A stretch of 64,000 bases of DNA from NCBI GenBank assembly GCA_963789265.1, contig CAWBKB010000001.1, positions 256,001 through 320,000 on the forward strand, in the 5' to 3' direction. The number at the start of each line of letters is the position of its first letter. Positions within the stretch are counted from its first letter, which is position 1. Positions 51,684-64,000 of this stretch are shown piece by piece. The notes beneath the pieces are model-generated. The model was not told the DNA's origin. It worked only from the letters and a program-made list of their open reading frames with translations, and searched no databases. A program made the position numbers and the translations under genes. This DNA comes from an uncultured delta proteobacterium. Lineage in GTDB: Bacteria > Desulfobacterota > Desulfomonilia > Desulfomonilales > Desulfomonilaceae.

Positions 51684-51892
51684 GAAAACCAGCGGGGCCT
51701 TGCAGTTTGCGGCTTTCGTGTACTACATGTTTTTTATTGCAAACGTTGTCCCGATGGCAGTAAAGTTATTGGTCTTGCTCTGCGGTACTGAATTTTGTTC
51801 GTCCTCATGTCTGGCGTGCAAGGGCCGCGATGATATTGGTTCAGGGCATGAGGGGCAATCTGCCGGCGAAAATTATTGGAGGCGCGTGGTTT

Positions 51893-53056
51893 ATGAATCT
51901 TCACGAATATCAATCCAAAGAGTTGTTGGCCGAGCAGGGGGTGACCATTCCAAGGGGCTCGCTCTGCTACGATCCTCTCGAGGCGCTGATCGCGGCTCGA
52001 GAGTTAAAGAGCGACACGGTGGTGCTCAAGGCCCAGGTTCATTCCGGTGGCAGGGGCAAAGCCGGGGGTGTGGCAGTCGTTTCCATGGATGAGGACATTC
52101 GCGCCGCGGCCGCCCGGATTCTGAGCCAGAGGCTCGTCACCAACCAAACCGGCCCCCAGGGTAAACCTGTCAGTGCCCTCCTGGTGGAAGAAGCGCTTCC
52201 CATTGACCGGGAGATGTATCTCGGGGTCGTGCTGGATAGGAAAACCGGGCGAGTGACAATCATGGCCAGTCTTGCGGGCGGAGTGGAGATTGAAGCGCTG
52301 GCGAATGAATCTCCGGAGAAAATCTTCACGATAAGCGTGCATCCTCTGAGGGGGCTTTCCCCGTTCCAAGCGAGGGGCATGGCGTATCGGCTTTCCAACA
52401 CTAAGGCCGTGGCGACGCAAATCACAAAAATCATTACTGTCCTCTACCGGATCTTCGTGGAGTACGATTGTTCCCTGGTTGAAATTAATCCCCTGATCAT
52501 TTCGGGCGACCGCGTCCTCGCGCTGGATGCGAAGATCAACCTGGATGACCATTCGCTTTTCCGACACCCCGAGATGGAGCGTTTGCGCGACAGGTCGCAG
52601 GAAGACCTGCTCGAATTGTCGGCTCGAAAGGACGGGTTGAGTTACATAAGGCTCAGCGGCAACATCGGATGCATAGTTAACGGGGCGGGTCTGGCAATGG
52701 CAACGCTTGATCTCATATCGCTTCACGGAGGGACTCCGGCCAATTTTCTGGATGTTGGCGGCGGAGCCAGCGAGCAAGCAGTGGCCGATGCCATGAGCAT
52801 TCTCCTGGACGATTCCAATGTGAAGGCGATATTCATCAACATCTTCGGAGGAATACTCCGCTGCGACGTGCTGGCCCGCGGCGTCATCAAGGCCATTAAG
52901 CAGCGTGGTACTGCGCTGCCGGTGATAGCTCGGCTCGAAGGGACAAACATCGAAGAAGGGCGTTCCCTGTTTGAAGAATCCGGCCTCCCGATAGAAATGA
53001 TTCAATCGCTGAACGACGCGGCCAAACTCGTCGTGGAAAAGGCCGCTTCTGCGTAA
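51893..53056 (+). CDS. sucC: Succinate--CoA ligase beta subunit
   Basis: MNLHEYQSK, GGRGKAGG, EINP, NGAGLAM, NFLDVGG. Confidence 0.95.
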   Translation: MNLHEYQSKELLAEQGVTIPRGSLCYDPLEALIAARELKSDTVVLKAQVHSGGRGKAGGVAVVSMDEDIRAAAARILSQRLVTNQTGPQGKPVSALLVEEALPIDREMYLGVVLDRKTGRVTIMASLAGGVEIEALANESPEKIFTISVHPLRGLSPFQARGMAYRLSNTKAVATQITKIITVLYRIFVEYDCSLVEINPLIISGDRVLALDAKINLDDHSLFRHPEMERLRDRSQEDLLELSARKDGLSYIRLSGNIGCIVNGAGLAMATLDLISLHGGTPANFLDVGGGASEQAVADAMSILLDDSNVKAIFINIFGGILRCDVLARGVIKAIKQRGTALPVIARLEGTNIEEGRSLFEESGLPIEMIQSLNDAAKLVVEKAASA

Positions 53057-53309
53057 CGGGGTTCCACAAATTTTGCTTGCTCTGAAAGCAGGCTGGTTTC
53101 TAATCATGCGAATCGGTTGGCAGCAAAACCGCACTGACCTGACGCCCGGGATGGGGCTCAGGTCAGTGGCACCCGGCATCGGGTCATCATGGAGTCCCGG
53201 GTGCCATCCCGCGTCTCGCGGGAGGCTTTGTCGGATCCTTGCTGGATTTACCGAATTTTACATTGTTTAGCCGCCGATCTGATATGAGTCTCTCCCACGG
53301 AGAATTGAA

Positions 53310-54203
53310 ATGGCAATCCTGGTCAACAGAGAATCCCGGGTAATATGTCAGGGTATAACCGGGCGTAATGGGACTTTTCATTCTTTGGCCTGCCGGGAAT
53401 ACGGCACCAACATGGTCGGTGGTGTCACACCCGGCAAAGGCGGAGAGACAGTGGACGGCATCCCTGTCTTCAACACCGTCTCTGATGCGGTGAAAGAGAC
53501 CGGCGCCGACGTGTCGCTGATCTTCGTGCCGGCCGCGTACGCGAAGGACCCTATCCTTGAGGCGGTGGACGCGGGGATTCGCGTCATCGTCTGCATAACC
53601 GAGGGTATACCGCCCCTTGACACGGCATCGGCCCTCCACACTGTTCGTGAGGAGGGGAGATGGCTTATCGGCCCCAACACTCCCGGGATTATATCGCCAA
53701 AAGAGAAGTGCAAAGTCGGCATCATGCCGGGTTACATTCCTAAGCCGGGTCCTGTAGGGGTTATTTCACGCTCCGGCACCCTCACCTATGAAGTGGTCGA
53801 TCAACTCACCAAGAACGGGGTCGGGCAGAGTACATGCATGGGCCTCGGCGGAGACCCGGTCGTCGGTATGAGCTTTATTGATGCGCTGAAAATGTTTCGC
53901 GAAGACCCTGAGACCGAAGCGGTAGTCCTGATCGGTGAGATAGGAGGCTCTGCTGAAGAACAAGCCGCGGAGTTCATCAAAAACGAGTTCGATAAGCCCG
54001 TAGTAGCCTATGTTGCCGGACGGCTTGCACCTCCGGGAAAACGCATGGGGCATGCCGGCGCGATCATATCCGGGGGATCGGGAACAGCTCAGGGGAAGAT
54101 TAAAGCGCTCACCGAGGCGGGTGTGACCGTGGTTGATAATCTGACCCAGGTTGGAGCCGCGGCCAGACAAGCGCTTAAGGAACCGGGATCCTCAAGAATG
54201 TAG
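53310..54203 (+). CDS. sucD: Succinate--CoA ligase alpha subunit
   Basis: [30 protein letters not shown]. Confidence 0.95.
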
Positions 54204-54219
54204 GGAAGAGGAGACGTAA

Positions 54220-55774
54220 ATGTCCGTGATGGAAGAGAAATTCGAGGAATTAAGTCGGAGACTGGCAGAATCCGATCAGGCAGGCGGCCCGGAAAAGGTT
54301 TCGAAGCAGCATCAGGCTGGGAAGATGACGGCAAGAGAGCGGGTCCTGGAGCTTCTCGACGACGGCTCATTCGAAGAGATAGACAAATTTGTTGCCCATC
54401 GCTGCACCGATTTTGGCATGGCCAAGACTCAGATCCCCGGGGAAGGCGTGGTGACGGGCTTCGGTAGAATCAACGGCCGCGGGGTGTACGTTTTTGCGCA
54501 GGATTTTACTGTGTTCGGCGGGAGCCTCTCCTTCACCCATGCCCAAAAGATATGCAAAGTCATGGACCTCGCGTACAGGAATGGTTTTCCCCTTATAGGC
54601 ATCAACGATTCAGGCGGCGCGCGCATCCAGGAGGGCGTTGAGAGCCTGGGCGGCTATGGGGAGGTCTTCTATCGCAATGTGCGTGCCTCGGGTGTGATCC
54701 CTCAGATTTCCGTGGTCATGGGACCGTGCGCGGGCGGTGCGGTTTATTCCCCCGCGGTTACTGACTTCATCTTTATGACGGAAAAGACCAGCTACATGTT
54801 CATCACCGGCCCTCAGGTGATCAAACAGGTGACAAGCGAGGAGATAGACCCCGAGAGTCTCGGTGGCGCCAAGGTGCACGGGCGGGTATCCGGTGTGTGC
54901 CACTTTCACTCCCCCACAGAAGCTGAAACACTGGCCAAGGTCAAGGAACTCGTCTCATTCCTTCCGGACAGCAACCGCGTCAGGCCCCCGGTAGTCCCGA
55001 ACGACGACCCCATTGATAGGCCGGTCCCTGAACTGGATTCCGCGATACCCGACAGCTCTCGCAAACCTTATGACATGAAAAAAGTGATAGTGCCCGTGCT
55101 GGACAATGGGCATTTTTTGGAAGTTCACGCCCATTACGCTCGCAACCTGATCACCGGCTTCGGCAGGCTTGCCGGGAGAACCGTCGGGATAGTGGCCAAT
55201 CAACCGAACTGGCTTGCCGGATGCCTGGACACCGAGGCTTCGGTAAAGTGCGCGCGTTTCGTGCGATTCTGCGATGCTTTCAATATTCCGCTCTGGACTC
55301 TGTTGGACGTGCCGGGGTACCTGCCGGGCACTCAGCAGGAGCACGGGGGAATCATCAAGCACGGCGCGAAGATACTCTATGCTTACGCGGAGGCAACGGT
55401 CCCCAAGGTGACCCTAATCACCCGGAAGGCTTATGGCGGGGCTTACGTGGTTATGTCCAGCAAGCACCTGCGCCGCGGACATCAACCTGGCCTATCCCTC
55501 TGCCGAGATCGCGGTCATGGGACCCGAGGGCGCAATACAGATCCTATTTCGTAAGGAGATCGCGCAAGCTCCGGACCCGACTGCCAGGCGAGCCGAGCTT
55601 ATTCAGGACTATGTGGAGAAGTTTGCGAGCCCGTATCGTGCCGCCCAGCTTGGCTTTGTGGACCGGGTGATCTTCCCGCGCGATACCCGCTCGGTTCTTA
55701 TCAAGGCATTCGCCCAATTGGAGAACAAAGTCGAAGAAAAGCCCAACCGCAGACACGGAAACATTCCCCTCTAG
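54220..55774 (+). CDS. pccB: Acyl-CoA carboxylase carboxyltransferase subunit (PccB/MmdA-like), frameshift near 55472
   Basis: [30 protein letters not shown]. Confidence 0.88.
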
Positions 55775-56020
55775 TGAGCGTCGGGCAGGGAGGCAAGATT
55801 TGCCGCGTAGTGCGCCGAGATAACAAGTGGTTTGGATACCAGCACATAGCCCACCGCAGAACGTGATTAGGCCGGCTATATTTCGGTGTCACAGACCTGA
55901 TAGCATTATGCCTCACTTGAGAGAAATTCAGAGAAGACAGAATCCTCTGCGATCTCTGCGACCTCCGCGGTGAACTATTTAATCTCTAGTTCAAGAGAGT
56001 TCGGCATTAAGGAATTGAGC

Positions 56021-56416
56021 ATGGAAAAGCGTATCAGGGTAGTTGTGGCCAAGCCCGGTCTTGACGGCCATGATAGAGGTGCCAAAGTAGTGGCCAGAGC
56101 TTTACGCGACGCGGGCATGGAGGTCATCTATACGGGATTGAGACAGACCCCCGAGGCAATCCTCCAGACTTGTGTGCAGGAAGATGCGGATGTATTGTGC
56201 CTCAGTTCCCTCTCCGGGGCCCACGACTATCTGTTCCCCAAGGTGGCCGAACTCTTCAAGGAGAAGGGGGTCGATGACGTGCTGATACTGGGAGGCGGCA
56301 TAATCCCGGAAGAAGATGTCCCAAAGCTCAAACAAAGCGGCATTGAAGCTATCTTCGGACCGGGTACCCGTACCGACGACATAGTGGAATACATCCGAAC
56401 CCATCTCAAAAAATGA
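56021..56416 (+). CDS. Cobalamin-binding subunit of methylmalonyl-CoA mutase
   Basis: [27 protein letters not shown]. Confidence 0.92.
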
Positions 56417-56691
56417 ATCGCTCCGTACGCCGGATTTAGTAGGGTGGTCCCGCGAAGCGCGGGATTGCCCGCCTCACAGAAGGGTCGGCATCTTGCCCGC
56501 CACCACAGTAGGGTGGGCATCCTGCCCGCCGATTGACCTGGCCACCTGCCCTTCAGTTGAGAATCGACGGGCGGGACGCTCATCCTACCGGTCCGATGCC
56601 GACCCCCGGTATTGTGTCCTTTTGTATGCTGCGATACGTTGGTACTACTGATATCAATGCGCCGTCAAAAAGATGACAATCCTAGACAGTA

Positions 56692-56800
56692 TATGGTGGG
56701 GCCGGCATTCTGCCTGTCCCACGTTCCGCGGGATCACGCCGGATTCCGATCCGGTCTATGTAGGGGCGGACACATGGGTCTGCCCCTACAATTGATTCCC
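56692..56800 (-). repeat. REP-like composite repeat; uninterrupted (empty-site) version of the MITE host at 18355-18668
   Basis: Reverse complement matches both MITE flanks with a single GGATCGGAATCC (56741-56752). Confidence 0.85.
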
Positions 56801-56962
56801 GCGTACACGAGCACGACGACAGGCAATCACGCCCGGGCGTGATTGTCCCACCATAAACACAGTGTCACTTGCTTGAAAGCGAATCGGCAAAACAGGCGGC
56901 GCCGATCTCGTAGAGGCACGGCGTCAAGCGCCCTCGGGAACTTTCATTGTGGAGTATGTTTT

Positions 56963-57844
56963 ATGGAACAGACTTTTGGACCGATACGGTTCATATCAGG
57001 TAAGAATTCAGGGAAGTATCCGCACTGCCACTCACTATACGTTGAGGCTCAGCAGAAGATCCTTATTGACCCTGCTTCCGACCGAAGCAAACTGGCCGAG
57101 CTTCGTGAAGGACCCGGAGTGGATGTCATCTGGTTGTCTCACTGGCACGAAGATCATTCCATGGATCTCGATCTCTTTGATGACAAGGATCTGTGGATTT
57201 CAGAAGGGGACGCTCCTCCGCTGGCAAGCTTGGACGCGTTCTTTGACGCGTACGGCATGACCGCGGACGAACGGCGGTCCTGGGAGCCGATCATGGCGCA
57301 ATCATTCCACTTCAAGCCACGTAAACCTGACCGGCTGTTGCAGGGACAACAGACAGTGGATTTGGGTGGGGTCGCCGTTGAGGTGATCCCTGCGCCGGGT
57401 CACACCCCCGGACATTGCGCACTCCTATTTCCGGGACAAGACCTACTATTCATGGGTGACTATGATTTGTCCAATTTTGGACCCTGGTACGGCGACCGAG
57501 ATTCAGACATAGACGAGGTCATAGCATCGGTGAATCATCTCCGGAGTATTTCTGCGCGAGTATGGGTGACAGCTCATGAACAGGGAGTCTTCCAAGACGA
57601 GCCGGGTGAGCTTTGGGATCGGTACCTCCAGGTCATCGATCGCCGCGATGAGAAGCTGCTTGACCTGCTAAAGGAGCCACGGACAATGTCCGAGATCGTC
57701 GACGCACGAATTATATACAGCCGGAAACGCGCACCTGCGGAGTTCTATGACTTCGGCGAGCGAGCCCTCATGGGAAAGCATCTCCAGCGGCTCATGAAAA
57801 ATGGGGCAGTTGTATTAGACGGCTCCACGTACTGTCTTGTTTAG
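56963..57844 (+). CDS. MBL-fold metallo-hydrolase
   Basis: SHWHEDH, PGHTPGH, GD.DL..FGPWYG. Confidence 0.9.
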   Translation: MEQTFGPIRFISGKNSGKYPHCHSLYVEAQQKILIDPASDRSKLAELREGPGVDVIWLSHWHEDHSMDLDLFDDKDLWISEGDAPPLASLDAFFDAYGMTADERRSWEPIMAQSFHFKPRKPDRLLQGQQTVDLGGVAVEVIPAPGHTPGHCALLFPGQDLLFMGDYDLSNFGPWYGDRDSDIDEVIASVNHLRSISARVWVTAHEQGVFQDEPGELWDRYLQVIDRRDEKLLDLLKEPRTMSEIVDARIIYSRKRAPAEFYDFGERALMGKHLQRLMKNGAVVLDGSTYCLV

Positions 57845-58065
57845 GGGAGCGGATATGCTTGTTGTCAGGTACAAACGTGAGATAACGTGGTCCGGTCGAG
57901 ATCCGATGGAGCAAGGTCATCCCTCCTGAATTTCTCTGGTTCTCTCATACCAACTTCCACAAATAAGTAACAATCCTAGACAGGATTGGGCAGGCAGTCC
58001 CGCGTTCCGCGGGGTCATCCCGGACTGCGATCCGGGGTCCGGTCTGGGTGCCGCGTTCACGGGCT

Positions 58066-58131
58066 CGACACGTAGGGCCGGGTTTCAAACCCGCCCCTAC
58101 CAAAAACACGGTGTCATTTGCTTGAAAGCGA
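58066..58131. repeat. GTAG-type REP-like palindrome module
   Basis: GTAGGGCCGGGTTTCAAACCCGCCCCTAC plus a CACGGTGTCATTTGCTTGAAAGCGAA tail; reverse-related copies at 18264-18343 and 56855-56885. Confidence 0.7.
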
Positions 58132-58287
58132 ACTGGTCTCAAAGTTCCACCACAGCTTCAGATAATCCCGGAACCACTCCACCAGATCCGAATAATTCGC
58201 ACTTGATTTTTCCTCAAGTTTTTGATTAATAAGACCCAAGAGTAATTGCTGCTCTTTTTTAAAGGAGTTGCACTAAGGAGTAAAAGT

Positions 58288-58468
58288 ATGACTTTACAAC
58301 AGATTCGTCAGAAGGCCAGAAACGATGGGGGTGAAGAACATCACCCGGCACAAGAAGGACAGCCTGATCAAGGCTATCCAGGAGCAAGAGGGGAATGCGC
58401 CTTGCTTCAGGGGCATAGAGGACTGCTGGGAAGAAAGATGCCTCTGGAGAGAGGAATGCCAGGCCTGA
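58288..58468 (+). CDS. Small SAP/Rho-N-like protein with a Cys-rich tail, +1 frameshift near 58321
   Basis: Corrected reading MTLQQIRQKARTMGVKNITRHKKDSLIKAIQEQEGNAPCFRGIEDCWEERCLWREECQA; AAGGAG RBS. Confidence 0.75.
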
Positions 58469-58497
58469 CAGCCATTTGGTGGGGTTGGCCAGTGTTG

Positions 58498-58542
58498 GAC
58501 CGGCGCTTTTGGTTCGATGTTAATTGAACCAAAAGCGCCGGT
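58498..58542 (+). terminator. Strong hairpin after the small gene
   Basis: ACCGGCGCTTTTGGTTCGAT/ATTGAACCAAAAGCGCCGGT stem followed by TTGGTTTT. Confidence 0.6.
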
Positions 58543-58793
58543 TTGGTTTTACCTGGTCGGATAATTTATAGCAGTTGTCAGAAGTTTTGTCCGATTTGCG
58601 TCGCGTTTCGCGGGGTCACCCCGGACACCGATCCGGGGTCCAGTCTGTCCCGCGTTCCGCGGGACCACGTGCGCGAGAATCACGATAAAAAGCTCCGGAG
58701 GCCAAGTCTTCAAATGACAACGCTCCCGATAAACAAAAGGACATCTTTTTGGACAACTGATATAACCTTTGGTTATGAACCCAAAGTTCTGTG

Positions 58794-58820
58794 CGATTCA
58801 CCCCACGTGCGTGGGGCAAT
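58794..58820 (-). repeat. Solitary type I-E CRISPR-like repeat
   Basis: CGATTCACCCCACGTGCGTGGGGCAAT; one mismatch and two deletions relative to 63878-63906. Confidence 0.55.
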
Positions 58821-59204
58821 TGCGACTGAGCTCTTTGGAAACCTCGCCTGCAGTTCGACCACAACAGCCAGACATCTACCCAGCTTCAGGGCAACGAGCC
58901 CGAGATCTACGGCATGATTAATTGACACCTGTGGACAGGATGGAAGCGGCCACTGATGCGTTTTTGTCCCGGACCTAACCAGTGATGCTGAGTCCTGGAC
59001 GCCACTCGGACGGATCTCGGCCAATCTGGCCCAGGATGAATTCGAAAGAGTCACGGACTTGGCTCTAGCCTCTGCGGCAATCTCGCCGAGCGGCCGGGCA
59101 GGAATCATGACGAGATGTGATGACTACTACCATGTTGCTTTGTCGGCCCGCTCAAACAATTAGGAGGGCATCCCGGGCTTACTCAACAAAAATACCATTG
59201 GCTA

Positions 59205-59978
59205 TTACACACTCCGCGCTATTAGCGCAGCGCCCAGGGCTCCGACAATCTGCGGTTCGTCCGGGACGTTGATCGGAAGGTCGGTCCTGCGGCGGATCGT
59301 ATCGAGGACACCCACGTTTTTGGCGACGCCGCCGGTAAGGGTGAGTTCCGGTTCGGGGTGCATACGGTCCATCATAGCCAGCACGCGCAGACAGATGGCG
59401 GTATGTATCCCATTAAGGATGTCTTCCCGCGGGGTGCAGTGCGCGATCAAGGAGATCACTTCCGACTCCGCGAAGACCGTGCACGTGCTGCTTATAGCGA
59501 CCTCCCGCTCGGATTGAAGCGAAAGCGGTCCCATGCGGTCCAGGTCCACCTCCAGCGCTCTGGCCATGACTTCGAGGAATCGCCCGGTTCCTGCGGCGCA
59601 CTTGTCGTTCATTGCGAAGTCAATCACCTTCCCGTGACCGTCTAACTTAATCACCTTGCTGTCCTGCCCGCCGATATCGATGATTGTACGCGTGCCGGGA
59701 AACAGATGTGCAGCGCCCCTCGCGTGACACGTGATCTCGGTGACGGCCTTGTTAGCGCAAGGCAGGCTCGCGCGGCCGTACCCTGTTGCCACAATGCACC
59801 GTAGATTGGTACGCGGGATTCCCGCGCGCTCCAGCGCCCGATTCAGAGATCGCTCGCCCGCGACCCTGCTGTCCGCGCCGGTGGACGTCACGTCGAAGGC
59901 TTTGATTGCGCCACGGTCGTCGATGATGACCGTATCGGTGCTCAAGGATCCAATATCGACACCCGCGTAGAATCTCAT
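59205..59978 (-). CDS. Acyl-CoA dehydratase activase (HgdC/BcrAD-like ATPase)
   Basis: GVDIGS, ATGYGR, EITCH, DIGGQDSK, MNDKCAAGTGRF, CTVFAESE. Confidence 0.93.
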   Translation of the reverse strand: MRFYAGVDIGSLSTDTVIIDDRGAIKAFDVTSTGADSRVAGERSLNRALERAGIPRTNLRCIVATGYGRASLPCANKAVTEITCHARGAAHLFPGTRTIIDIGGQDSKVIKLDGHGKVIDFAMNDKCAAGTGRFLEVMARALEVDLDRMGPLSLQSEREVAISSTCTVFAESEVISLIAHCTPREDILNGIHTAICLRVLAMMDRMHPEPELTLTGGVAKNVGVLDTIRRRTDLPINVPDEPQIVGALGAALIARSV

Positions 59979-59987
59979 TCCTACCTG

Positions 59988-61241
59988 CTAGACGGTAAGT
60001 CCTCTTTGTTCGAGAAGCATTTCCATGAACGCGTCGATCCGCGTCTGGAATTGCGCGACCGAGAAGTTCCTGCTGTCCATGTGGTCCGCGTCGATGAACA
60101 CCGAGGGGATGCCCAACTCCGTTTCGAGCGCGCGTTTGATGTCCATCTGTCCGAGCGTGATCGGAACGCATGATTTGTTGCGGTGGAGCACCGCACCGTG
60201 GATTCCGTAATCTCTGCAAGCGGTGACTACCGCGTCGATGCGCTTCCGCACCGAAACGCACGACACTAGAGGGTAAGACTTTAGGCTCTTCACGGCCAAT
60301 GACTCCATCGGATTGTCCGGGTCCAAACGAAGTGACCACGTGGACGAGGACGTCTCCGCGACCACTACTCCGCCCATCTTCTCGAATGCGTTGAACAGCC
60401 CCATATTGTACCAGAGCGGGATGTTGTCCCAGAATAGCCTGAGTTTCTCCTCTTCGATCACCCCTATTCCGGAGAGAGCCCGTTGTTCGACCTCGTCACG
60501 CACCCTGGTAAGGAAATCCACAGCGGTCTGCGTGCCCTGCCTGGTGACCATGACGAACATAATCCCGATCTCCGCGGCTGAGAACGGCGTCGGCACGTGG
60601 CGTCTGAAGGCCATGATCTCGTCCCACAGCTCGCAGGCGCGATCGGACAGCCGCACCACCTCCTTCAGGCGGTCGTAGTCGAGTCTACGGTGGGTCGCTT
60701 CCTCGAGGAACTCTATCAATCGACGCAGTTCACTGATCGCGTATTCCACGTGATACGACTGGATATCTTCGATAGCGACCTGGGGCAGGTCAGCGCGAAA
60801 CACTCGAGCGTTGGGAAAGCGCCGCTCAAGCGCGTGAAAGATCTTCATCACCGGAATGCACCCGCCGCCGGGACTTATGAGCAAGTTGGGCTCCGGCAGC
60901 CCGCCCAACGGCGATCCAGGCTCGTTCATGGGCCCGTGCACGTATCCGACAATGTTCCGTAGGTACCCGCAGAGGTCGGGCGAATACCCCATGGCTTCCG
61001 CGACCTCGAAGTTCCTCGGCGCAAGTCCGAACGCAGCACAGATTGGCGACCAGTTCTCTGGAAATACCGGCTGGATGCCCATTGCGTAGAAGATCTCGAT
61101 GGCCCCGTTCATTGGAGGCATCCAACCAAGGAGTTTGCCTTGGCCGCTGGCCTCGGCGCACTCCAGGTAGTATTCACCGATCACCCGGTTGAGTTCCTTG
61201 GCAGCTCTCAGCCTCTTCCTGGACTTGCCTATCTTCTCCAT
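59988..61241 (-). CDS. 2-hydroxyacyl-CoA dehydratase subunit (HgdA/BcrB-like)
   Basis: PEN, GYSPDLCGY, KSC, D.DHMD.R...AQ..TRIDAF.E. Confidence 0.88.
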   Translation of the reverse strand: MEKIGKSRKRLRAAKELNRVIGEYYLECAEASGQGKLLGWMPPMNGAIEIFYAMGIQPVFPENWSPICAAFGLAPRNFEVAEAMGYSPDLCGYLRNIVGYVHGPMNEPGSPLGGLPEPNLLISPGGGCIPVMKIFHALERRFPNARVFRADLPQVAIEDIQSYHVEYAISELRRLIEFLEEATHRRLDYDRLKEVVRLSDRACELWDEIMAFRRHVPTPFSAAEIGIMFVMVTRQGTQTAVDFLTRVRDEVEQRALSGIGVIEEEKLRLFWDNIPLWYNMGLFNAFEKMGGVVVAETSSSTWSLRLDPDNPMESLAVKSLKSYPLVSCVSVRKRIDAVVTACRDYGIHGAVLHRNKSCVPITLGQMDIKRALETELGIPSVFIDADHMDSRNFSVAQFQTRIDAFMEMLLEQRGLTV

Positions 61242-61242
61242 G

Positions 61243-62356
61243 TCAGGCCCCCAGCATCTCGAAAAAAGCCTCGATGCGAGTTTTCAGTCTCCCTTCGTTG
61301 AGACCCGCTTCCTCCATTTCCAGAACCACGCTCGGGATGCCCTGCTCCCTGAGTCCTCTCATGAGCGCCGGAAGGTCCGCCAGGTGAGGCGTGCAGAATT
61401 TCTGAAGCAGGAAGATGACACCCCGCGCACCCGATTCGGCGACCACGCCAAGTAGTAGCTGGAGCCGCTCCTCGGCCCGGGACCTCGCCGGACACGGGAT
61501 GCGGCTAAAGGTACGATCCATGAGCCATTCCACAGGATCGGCGGCTCTATCCACGGGTGGCTGCACGCATCGAAATCCCGTACAGAGATCGTCCGCAGCG
61601 ATTCTCCCACCCGCAGCCTCGATGACTTCCAGAACTGCGGGCTCTTCGAGTACGCTTCCGGAAACGAGGTCCGGGTAGCCCTGGTCGCGCAGCGGCCATC
61701 GTCGAGACCTGATCCGTGAGGTCGTGTAGCATTAGGCGGTACTCCTCGGGCCACGTTACGAACCCCGCCAGTATGACAGAGAGCAACTCTGCAGCCGAGA
61801 GCCCGAGCCGGTTCTCCGCCCGGAGACGGAACAGCTCACGTATTGCCTCGCGCACATCCTCATAAAGATGAATCGACGCATCGAGCCTTTCTTCGGTGAA
61901 AGAACCCCCAATCAAGTTCAGCTTCTCAGCGACCTCCGCGAGTGCAGCTCGAAAGAAACGCCTGGCATCGGGGCTATCGTTATAAGGCAAAGGAATGGTG
62001 TGGAAAAGCGCACCCGGAAGGTTCTCCTGCCAGATGCGAACCAGTCCGCACGCGACGTCGCAGGTGTAGCCCTGCACGATGCCCGAGAGGTACGACCGGC
62101 CTCCGGCGAGAGCCTTGTCCAGGGCCATCCTCATGTACGGGCAGACAAAGGTAGGCACAAGCGAGTCAGCCTTAGTCACCGGTCCGCGACCGCCGAGGAT
62201 ACGCACAGGCAGAAAACCCGCAGCGTGGATCATCTCGACGGGCGTGTACGTGCAGAAATAGCCGATGATCTTTGTCCCCGCTAACGCGAGGTGATTGAGG
62301 CGCTCGTGACTTTGCTCGAGGGCTTTCACAAAGGGTTCGATCGCTGAGGCGGGCAT
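61243..62356 (-). CDS. 2-hydroxyacyl-CoA dehydratase subunit (HgdB/BcrC-like), frameshift near 61672
   Basis: GYFCTYTPVEMIHAAG, TCD, DDLCTG.R, KFC.PH, TRIEAF.E. Confidence 0.88.
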
Positions 62357-62504
62357 GGTATTCTCGTGAGGCGACGTCCACGTGGATGGAAACGAAAAAT
62401 GATCGCGGCCCGGTCAACATTTTCCTCCATCGTTTGATGGATACACTGCAAGATTACCCCGGTCGAGTCAAGGAAAGAAAAACGGAATCTTGCCGCGTGT
62501 TCAC

Positions 62505-62564
62505 GGGGTCCTCCACACGTGCGTGGAGAGGACAATCAATCTACGCCCCCGCGTGAGGGGCGAC
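62505..62564 (-). repeat. Degenerate I-E-like repeat abutting a I-C-like CRISPR repeat
   Basis: GGGGTCCTCCACACGTGCGTGGAGAGGAC then CAATCAATCTACGCCCCCGCGTGAGGGGCGAC (27/32 identical to 63935-63966). Confidence 0.6.
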
Positions 62565-62894
62565 TGACGACTACGCCCCTGTGGACAACCTCGTGGCCCG
62601 CATATTCGAGGTGCAATTCGGCTGCGACCGAAGGGATCAAGAAGACCCGCGCCCCTGGCGGGAGAGGGCAGGGTGAGGGGGAATTTTGAGCGAATCCTCG
62701 GCTCTTATTTTGAGGCCTATGCGCCGGCGCCCCTGGTATTTCCCTGTTTTCGCAATCTTCGGCCGACCCGCGAACATCTGCCCGGCTATTCCCGCACACT
62801 TTGCTCATATTTATCTTTACATGGCCTTCCAAACATGGGAAAATTTAAAAAGGGGATTCCATTTTTGTTTACAACACAAGAATAAGGAGGGGAC

Positions 62895-63797
62895 ATGAAA
62901 ACGACCGAATTGGCTTGTCTGCTGCTCGTTTGTTGCCTGGTGGTTCCTGCGCTCGCCTCCGCCCGAGACGTTACGCCCTTCATCTCGACCGATTGGCTGC
63001 AGAAGAACCTCGAAAACCCCAAAGTGGTGATCGTCGATACGCGGAAGTTCGAGGATTACAAGCAAGGGCACATCCCCGGCGCGGTCAACTCGTTCTTCGG
63101 CGCATGGGCACCCGAGAAGAACAAGCTCCTCTTGGAATTGCCGTCGGACAAGGAGCTGCTCGGGCTGATCGGATCGGCCGGTATAAAGCCCGATTCGACA
63201 GTCGTCGCGGTCAGCATGGCCGACAACAACTACAGCAGGGCCGACGCCACCCGCGTGGCCTTCACGATGGTCATAGCGGGGCTGAAGAACGTCTCCGTCC
63301 TGGAGGGGGGCTACGCGAAGTGGCTCAAGGAGAAGAAACCCGTCTCCACCGAAGAAGTGACGCCGAGGGCCGGAAAGTATGAGGGCAAGGTGAGAAGGAC
63401 GGCAGTTGCCTCGAAGGCGTACGTGATGGAAAAGATGGGGAAGTCACGCCTCGTGGATTGCCGGGACGCGAATGTCTACTTCGGCCTCACCGTCGAGCCC
63501 TTTGCCCCGAAGCCCGGACACATAAAGAGCGCGGTAAACCTGCCCACCCCCTGGATCTACACGAAGGAGGGGACGCTGCTTCCTGAAAAGGACCTCGCGG
63601 CGATGGCCGCAAACGTCGTCGGGGAGGACAAATCGAAGGAGGTCATAACTTACTGCGGTGTCGGCGGCTACGGCGCGACGTGGTGGTACCTCCTCACTCA
63701 GATGTTCGGCTACAAGAACGTGAAGCTCTATGATGGCGCCATGCAGGAGTGGGTGACCGACCCGAACGCGCCGATTACCACATTCCGTTGGCTTTGA
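62895..63797 (+). CDS. Exported tandem-domain rhodanese/sulfurtransferase
   Basis: Signal peptide, GHIPGA, LEGG, GHIKSA, YCGVG active-site Cys, KLYDG.M.EW. Confidence 0.92.
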   Translation: MKTTELACLLLVCCLVVPALASARDVTPFISTDWLQKNLENPKVVIVDTRKFEDYKQGHIPGAVNSFFGAWAPEKNKLLLELPSDKELLGLIGSAGIKPDSTVVAVSMADNNYSRADATRVAFTMVIAGLKNVSVLEGGYAKWLKEKKPVSTEEVTPRAGKYEGKVRRTAVASKAYVMEKMGKSRLVDCRDANVYFGLTVEPFAPKPGHIKSAVNLPTPWIYTKEGTLLPEKDLAAMAANVVGEDKSKEVITYCGVGGYGATWWYLLTQMFGYKNVKLYDGAMQEWVTDPNAPITTFRWL

Positions 63798-63877
63798 AAG
63801 ACCCGCCTTAGCAGTCACTGGGCCCCGCCTGGTGCAGGGCCCCGTAGCATTTCCGGGATATGCCCGAAGATCTTAAA

Positions 63878-64000
63878 CGGTTCACCCCCACGTGCGTGGG
63901 GACAATGCTATTTTGCCGCTGGCGGGGATTCCGTGTTTCAATCCACGCCCCTGCGTGAGGGGCGACTTATGACATAGGTATAGGCCCTCCACGGTTTGAG
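63878..64000 (-). CRISPR. Mixed CRISPR repeat unit: 29-nt type I-E repeat, 28-nt spacer, 32-nt type I-C repeat, then 34 nt to the window edge
   Basis: Minus-strand repeats ATTGTCCCCACGCACGTGGGGGTGAACCG (63878-63906) and GTCGCCCCTCACGCAGGGGCGTGGATTGAAAC (63935-63966) have the canonical lengths and ends; no cas genes in the window. Confidence 0.65.

Follow-up and report, generated by a model that had tools for sequence, protein, structure and literature searches.

The right-hand end of the 64,000-nt stretch of DNA analysed here (the window, positions 256001-320000 of contig C1 of genome G000) raises the question of why a CRISPR repeat of one subtype should lie directly beside a repeat of another. 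A 29-nt repeat of type I-E is followed by 28 nt, a 32-nt repeat of type I-C and 34 nt that reach the window edge (Table 1). The initial annotation offered two readings of this arrangement, namely a type I-C array ending in a foreign repeat, or a mini-array giving rise to a chimeric crRNA that needs the nucleases of both subtypes. The layout, including the common orientation of the two repeats, was confirmed to the nucleotide: at up to three mismatches each repeat occurs once in the window, and no match to either was obtained in 100 dinucleotide shuffles. The pair is not a product of chance.

Both repeats are palindromic, and each reads as the reverse complement of its own direction of transcription. 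When the minus strand is folded, the I-E repeat forms a 7-bp hairpin (-11.7 kcal/mol) and the I-C repeat a hairpin as well. The minus-strand orientation of the I-C repeat is given by the I-C cas genes and by Rfam CRISPR-DR9 matches on that strand, all of them below the threshold (23 bits vs. 45), while the I-E repeat had no match in Rfam; its orientation is indicated by relatives, in which the I-E cas genes and the leader lie on the side equivalent to the right here. Neither a terminator-like nor a promoter-like site was found at the I-E repeat on either strand.

Table 1. Features of the CRISPR site at the right-hand end of the window (positions are those of the window).
Feature	Position	Strand	Remarks
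Small conserved ORF bordering the genus's CRISPR site on the left	58246..58468	+	blastn synteny
I-E'', third I-E-like relic	58794..58820	-	16-nt palindromic core exact, E 0.02
2-hydroxyacyl-CoA dehydratase-like cluster, lineage-specific cargo	59205..62356	-	PF01869, PF06050; between I-E'' and I-E'
I-E', remodelled I-E-like relic	62504..62535	-	11-nt core CACGTGCGTGG kept, both stem arms changed, still a hairpin
I-C', I-C-like relic	62536..62564	-	27/29 identical to the array repeat, E 2.4e-5; abuts I-E' without a spacer
Rhodanese-domain gene, lineage-specific cargo	62895..63797	+	PF00581; between I-E'/I-C' and I-E
Solo type I-E repeat CGGTTCACCCCCACGTGCGTGGGGACAAT	63878..63906	-	Perfect 29-mer, probable relic, single copy in the genome
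28-nt linker between the I-E repeat and the last I-C repeat	63907..63934	-	
Trailer-end I-C repeat GTTTCAATCCACGCCCCTGCGTGAGGGGCGAC	63935..63966	-	27th repeat from the leader, same sequence as the other 26
Oldest I-C spacer, first 34 of 35 nt	63967..64000	-	Following I-C repeat begins 2 nt beyond the window edge

The first of the two readings was borne out by the sequence past position 64000, which provides 26 more identical I-C repeats and a cas operon of the I-C type. The complete array consists of 27 identical repeats and 26 spacers of 33-36 nt (C1:319935-321683, the right end being window-equivalent position 65683), and the repeat inside the window is the unit farthest from the leader and cas2. 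As the array is read from right to left, this copy is the trailer-end, oldest unit; it is not degenerate, which is unusual for such a position. The 34 nt at the window edge, initially taken for a spacer of the I-C type, are indeed the beginning of one. To the right of the array, all on the minus strand, follow a leader of about 190 nt, cas2, cas1, cas4, cas3, cas7, a cas8-like region, cas5 and a gene for a WYL/HTH regulator. Cas1 scored 501.9 bits against the type I-C Cas1c model TIGR03640 of NCBIfam (cut-off 385), and Cas2 and Cas4 exceeded their respective cut-offs as well. The effector proteins gave their best matches to I-C models at scores below the cut-offs (Cas7/Csd2, 103 vs. 182; Cas5c, 39 vs. 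85; Cas8c, 21 vs. 219). No Cas6-family match was detected among the scanned ORFs of the operon, and a k-mer scan of the whole genome revealed no second array of this kind.

Among the features by which a type I-C array is recognized, a series of direct repeats some 32 nt long with unique spacers of comparable size is present, as is a Cas1c/Cas2/Cas4 module with a leader between cas2 and the array. With known type I-C loci the one studied here shares the 32-nt hairpin repeat, the 33-36-nt spacers, Cas1c, Cas4, Cas2 and a Cas5-family protein, with no Cas6 among the scanned ORFs. It differs from them, however, in the gene order (cas5-cas8-cas7-cas3-cas4-cas1-cas2, the central position of cas3 being atypical), in effectors that stay below the I-C equivalog cut-offs, in a split cas8-like region and in the WYL regulator gene located upstream. 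I-C arrays with the identical repeat are found in 15 of the 70 genomes of the family, and G001, a member of the same genus, has 89 copies.

Several minor features of the I-C locus were recorded. The cas8-like region (L012:6987-9133, G000:C1:326987-329133) consists of two overlapping ORFs of 262 and 481 aa, and the faint Cas8c match is confined to the C-terminal end of the second one; cas3 lies between cas7 and cas4. Either cas8 may be frameshifted here or the effector module may be a divergent I-C-like one. In the array, with numbering from the window end, spacers 19 and 20 are identical 34-mers (G000:C1:321127-321258, window-equivalent 65127-65258), and spacer 16 nearly repeats spacer 26, which would fit two samplings of one protospacer region.

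Before any biological meaning is given to the junction, two trivial explanations have to be considered. Ordinary REP-like palindromic intergenic repeats might come to mind, as both sequences are palindromic, other dispersed repeats lie nearby (62622-62725) and Rfam recognizes neither repeat above the threshold. The probability of such an origin is negligible, though: the I-C repeat occurs in 27 regularly spaced copies with unique spacers adjoining cas1-cas2, the I-E 29-mer forms arrays with a 61-nt period beside cse1, cas7e and cas6e in relatives, and neither of the two is dispersed in the G000 genome. Hence the possibility raised in the initial annotation that the repeats belong to no CRISPR family is excluded by the arrays and the cas genes.

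An assembly or binning artefact, in which the end of an I-E array of one organism became joined to an I-C array of another, would be conceivable on the grounds that both repeats are abundant in metagenomes of the source type, that repeats break short-read graphs and that the contamination of the assembly amounts to 6%. Nevertheless, it seems most improbable. The junction region lies inside a contig of 2.59 Mb, and a 635-nt contig produced from the public metagenome run X1 by another assembler (Logan) covers positions 63332-63966 with 0 differences, bridging the rhodanese gene, the I-E repeat, the 28 nt and the I-C repeat; its support is not fully independent, because X1 may be the source sample. 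In addition, a decayed pair of the same two repeat types (I-E'/I-C') is situated 1.4 kb from the junction and is also found in a 95%-identical relative in run X3, which implies that the two repeat types have been neighbours for a long time.

The I-E repeat itself is alone in its genome. A single copy of the 29-mer is present at up to three mismatches, and the genome contains neither Cas6e (PF08798, 0 matches) nor Cas7e (PF09344, 0 matches) and only one Cas1. A tblastn search with 10 I-E Cas ORF fragments of the same-genus genome G004 against G000 gave nothing at E≤1e-3. Because the assembly is 95.57% complete with 6.07% contamination, the lack of I-E cas genes cannot be taken as absolute. As G000 has no Cas6e or I-E Cascade, the I-E repeat is left without a processing partner.

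In the family, meanwhile, the same 29-mer is common. It was found at up to three mismatches in 19 of the 70 genomes, about 10 of which contain I-E arrays with 5-40 copies at a period of 61 nt, made up of a 29-nt repeat and a 32-nt spacer. Copies number, for example, 40 in both G013 and G085, 28 in G056 (all at 61-nt spacing), 25 in G018, 17 in G009 (12 of them counted at one locus), 15 in G064, 11 in G066 and 7 in G004. Such arrays, together with the I-E cas genes of these relatives, identify the 29-mer, which we take to resemble textbook I-E repeats, as a genuine I-E repeat. The typing of both repeats in the initial annotation is therefore upheld by the neighbouring cas genes in G000 and its relatives. 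Eight genomes of the family have a single copy; that of G083 terminates a variant array at the edge of a contig, which leaves seven isolated copies (G000, G002, G052, G060, G063, G023 and G073). Cas6e, which is present in 21 of the 70 genomes overall, is missing from five of these seven (G000, G002, G052, G060 and G073). The family repeatedly shows solo I-E copies in genomes that lack I-E cas genes.

The origin of the solitary repeat was approached by blastn comparison of C1:300000-345000 with the corresponding regions of relatives. From 51863 to 58468, where the synteny ends, the window is colinear with two genomes of its own genus, G002 and G004. In these two genomes the match to the small conserved ORF (58194-58468) is followed by a hairpin and then, within about 130 nt, by an I-E trailer repeat. 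In G004 the order is the small ORF, a 7-repeat I-E array, the leader, cas1, cas6e, cas5, cas7, cse1, cas3 and finally a WYL gene 80% identical to the one that adjoins the I-C cas5 in G000. The site of G002 contains a single I-E repeat only. The I-C operon of G001 is adjoined by the same WYL gene (87% identical), and no I-E repeat was found in the 12 kb surrounding its I-C array. The interval between the small ORF and the WYL gene is hence occupied by an I-E system in G004, by a lone I-E repeat in G002 and by the I-C system with I-E relics in G000, a distribution that bears the signature of cassette replacement at a fixed site.

As a separate observation, in the I-E operon of G004 (L040:10185-18673, G004:C35) each of the genes cas3, cse1 and cas7 is broken up into two ORFs, and cas6e contains an in-frame TAG; this operon is either decaying or carries assembly errors.

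The reading that best accommodates these data, to which we assign a probability of about 0.8, is that, when cas cassettes were swapped, a repeat of the I-E system stayed behind as a relic beside the trailer of the I-C array that came in. From the observed anatomy and synteny, the absent I-E cas genes and the I-E arrays of the same 29-mer in relatives, we infer the direction and order of the events as well as the lack of function of the relic. The CRISPR-cas site of the genus would be the interval between the small conserved ORF and the WYL-regulator gene, and it would ancestrally have been occupied by an I-E array and the associated cas operon, the state preserved in the congener G004. An I-C module comprising the array, the leader and cas2-cas1-cas4-cas3-cas7-cas8-cas5 would then have replaced the I-E leader, the cas genes and most of the I-E array. 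Such a swap would leave an I-E repeat 28 nt from the last I-C repeat of an array that looks alive, and the leftover repeat would at most be transcribed as the 3' tail of the I-C pre-crRNA. The 28-nt linker is possibly a truncated I-E spacer or a recombination joint.

Trailer repeats are usually degenerate. The relic is identical in 29 of 29 positions to live repeats in several other genera, and together with the equally perfect last I-C repeat this points either to a recent event or to some constraint. A base-perfect foreign repeat at the trailer, combined with the synteny among congeners, would make this locus a worked example in which a swap from an I-E to an I-C cassette can be dated and located. 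It may also serve as a warning to annotators that a “hybrid array” of two repeat types can be a relic rather than a chimeric crRNA unit.

Comparable leftovers have been described. According to the accessible part of PMC10120712, a remnant repeat marks the empty site in Francisella genomes that lack the type V-A system and might serve recapture, and partially degraded stand-alone repeats occur in cas loci. In the accessible part of PMC7145637, 12% of arrays are reported to be orphans, which are shorter than others and some of which may be degrading. The likeness of the present case to the remnant and orphan repeats covered by these parts of the two papers consists in an isolated repeat at a place where relatives keep the full system, with no cognate cas genes. 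It differs from them, however, in that the relic lies 28 nt from the trailer of a live array of another subtype and in that two further relics are present, with cargo genes between them. The literature searched contained no natural array with two repeat types.

The second reading of the initial annotation, a functional RNA made from both repeats, was considered in two forms. A chimeric crRNA that needs both nucleases is not supported, in view of a genome with one Cas1 and neither Cas6e nor Cas7e, the negative tblastn search, the occurrence of the I-E/28-nt/I-C junction pattern in a single one of the 122 genomes of the class and the want of any significant complement to the 28-nt piece in the cas locus. 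As far as the assembly goes, a Cas6e-dependent chimeric crRNA would thus be excluded. A form of the idea that dispenses with Cas6e treats the last I-C repeat, the 28 nt and the I-E repeat as a working unit, a crRNA-like regulator or guide: Cas5c would cut the last I-C repeat, and an RNA composed of the I-C 5' handle, the 28-nt guide and the I-E hairpin as a stand-in 3' end would be loaded into the I-C Cascade. The last I-C repeat is perfect and would be expected to be cut like the others, and the I-E hairpin is stable. Moreover, regulatory mini-arrays with a spacer-like piece are listed for 7% of 1206 I-C loci in Table 1 of PMC10120712, as far as that table and the accessible text around it describe them.

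The existence of such a unit is nevertheless highly doubtful. When the 28 nt plus 7 nt were compared with the region from the leader to the WYL gene, the longest complement was 10 nt, a length equalled by 90 of 300 shuffles. The sole notable match of the 28-nt piece to its own genome comprises 17 nt in a transporter-like ORF (C1:2283420-2283436), leaves the first four guide positions unmatched and is probably due to chance. Comparison with phages had been proposed for both pieces, and neither the 28-nt piece nor the oldest I-C spacer matches the phage collection. The I-C locus of the same-genus G001 manages without an I-E repeat, and the second repeat is of a foreign type, unlike that of described mini-arrays. 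The present unit resembles the regulatory mini-arrays in the accessible part of PMC10120712 insofar as a cas locus is bordered by a perfect repeat, a piece the size of a spacer and another hairpin of repeat-like form. Unlike them, it has a second repeat of a different subtype; in addition, the cas locus contains no partial target for the piece, and the junction lacks conservation. That Cas5c releases a trailer RNA which includes the I-E hairpin is, judged from the sequence, possible but unsupported.

The probable relic of a cassette swap may have a counterpart in another genus of the family. The type V-B locus of G063 (L083:7346-14157, G063:C66), with 12 repeats of 36 nt, a Cas4-Cas1 fusion and a Cas12b of 1190 aa, has an I-E-like solo repeat with 2 mismatches at a distance of 29 nt from the trailer end of its array. 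This case represents either a second swap into an I-E site or, which is unlikely, a sign that I-E solo repeats accompany incoming modules. The presence of an I-E repeat at both the V-B and the I-C trailers could reflect a non-random association instead of two independent swaps.

The latter idea may be extended to a role in which incoming CRISPR modules carry the solo I-E repeat along and profit from it, either as an RNA decoy against the resident I-E system, in the manner of the solitary repeat units of phages, or as a patch of homology, i.e. a landing pad for cassette exchange and cargo capture. Two different modules, I-C in G000 and V-B in G063, have the I-E repeat at the trailer end; in G000 the repeat is co-oriented with the array and so would probably be co-transcribed with it, and cargo genes are located between the I-E relics. 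The same repeat is very abundant in the same communities, where the read depth reaches 107-1044 on the bin that contains it (63858-63911) and about 4-7 on the adjoining rhodanese gene, a depth which implies numerous arrays built from it. That solitary repeats can act as RNA anti-CRISPRs is described in the accessible part of PMC10651486, and recapture by means of remnant repeats is suggested in that of PMC10120712. The synteny, however, offers a simpler origin, the I-E repeat being found where congeners have an I-E array; G001 has the same I-C module without the I-E repeat; 29 nt is short for homologous recombination; and no mobile-element gene adjoins the module among the scanned ORFs. A role as a travelling decoy or landing pad is accordingly regarded as very unlikely, but if it were correct, it would be relevant to the way in which one CRISPR module displaces another.

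The swap that would have left the I-E repeat at the junction may not have been the only one at this site. Besides the decayed I-E'/I-C' pair, a third I-E-like relic (I-E'') lies 5.1 kb from the junction and about 330 nt beyond the small gene next to which relatives of the same genus have their I-E array. All three I-E relics retain a hairpin. In I-E' the changes in the arms preserve the pairing, which could hint at selection on structure.

Two sets of genes separate the relics. The rhodanese gene was found at E≤1e-30 in two of the 70 genomes of the family, namely G000 and one with 43% identity; on metagenome contigs its relatives were detected at 36 loci, the best of them 52-56% identical, and neither repeat was present there at up to five substitutions. 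The dehydratase-like cluster comprises an activator ATPase and two HGD-D genes, one of which is split in two ORFs, and the best same-genus matches of its 417-aa subunit are paralogues with 33% identity. No orthologue of the rhodanese gene or of the cluster was found in six congeners. Accessory genes thus appear to settle between relic repeats at this site. Across 54000-64000 the GC content shows no clear anomaly, so there is no compositional sign of transfer.

Taken together, the relics and the cargo genes suggest repeated turnover and gene insertion at the site. It is plausible but unproven that each round of turnover left a trailer relic and that cargo genes were inserted or carried in. The most elaborate version would be a layered record of serial CRISPR-cas turnover, with one relic per round (first I-E'', next I-E'/I-C' and last the I-E/I-C array) and solo I-E repeats, the most common repeat of these communities, acting as landing pads or decoy RNAs by which modules (I-C in G000, V-B in the other genus) and cargo enter I-E arrays; this version is considered unlikely.

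As to the sites of the relics themselves, no segmental duplication is claimed: for local alignments of their flanks, 121, 370, 1630, 566, 544 and 1653 of 2000 shuffles were as good. The split HGD-D subunit (61243-62356, minus strand) is encoded by overlapping ORFs at 61547-62356 (profile positions 1-188) and 61243-61566 (profile positions 245-342), a frameshift that would indicate either a pseudogene or a sequencing error. Between I-C' and the rhodanese gene, a dispersed repeat of about 100 nt with a MITE- or REP-like look occupies positions 62622-62725; it recurs at 86-94% identity at several places of G000 and in all six congeners.

Public metagenome runs provided further variants of the site, uncovered parts of the stretch in X1, X2 and X5 being given no weight as evidence. 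In the approximately 95%-identical relative from X3, the I-E'/I-C' pair contains an extra CAAT, and the match to the window is left after position 63829. In a contig from X5, position 62503 is followed immediately by the canonical I-E repeat (28 nt of it), which starts exactly at 62504, the first position of I-E' in the window; this join reflects either a deletion of 1374 nt or an intact I-E array at that place. A second contig from X5, 91% identical, leads from the rhodanese gene into the I-E repeat.

A few further repeat-like sequences were noticed elsewhere in the genome. A 25/29 match to the I-E repeat (G000:C1:2456960-2456988, E 1.2) and an exact 17-nt copy of the start of the I-C repeat (G000:C1:1048204-1048220, E 0.006) may each be a further relic or a chance match. 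Close to the end of contig C3 (G000:C3:1400-2450), two blocks of tandem repeats with units of about 100 nt adjoin each other. Finally, G000:C7:415350-415810 harbours about six copies of a palindromic repeat of about 30 nt (core ATTCCCGCG...CGCGGGAAT) with CRISPR-like spacing and unique spacers, and an element related to this repeat is found at positions 58600-58690 of the window.
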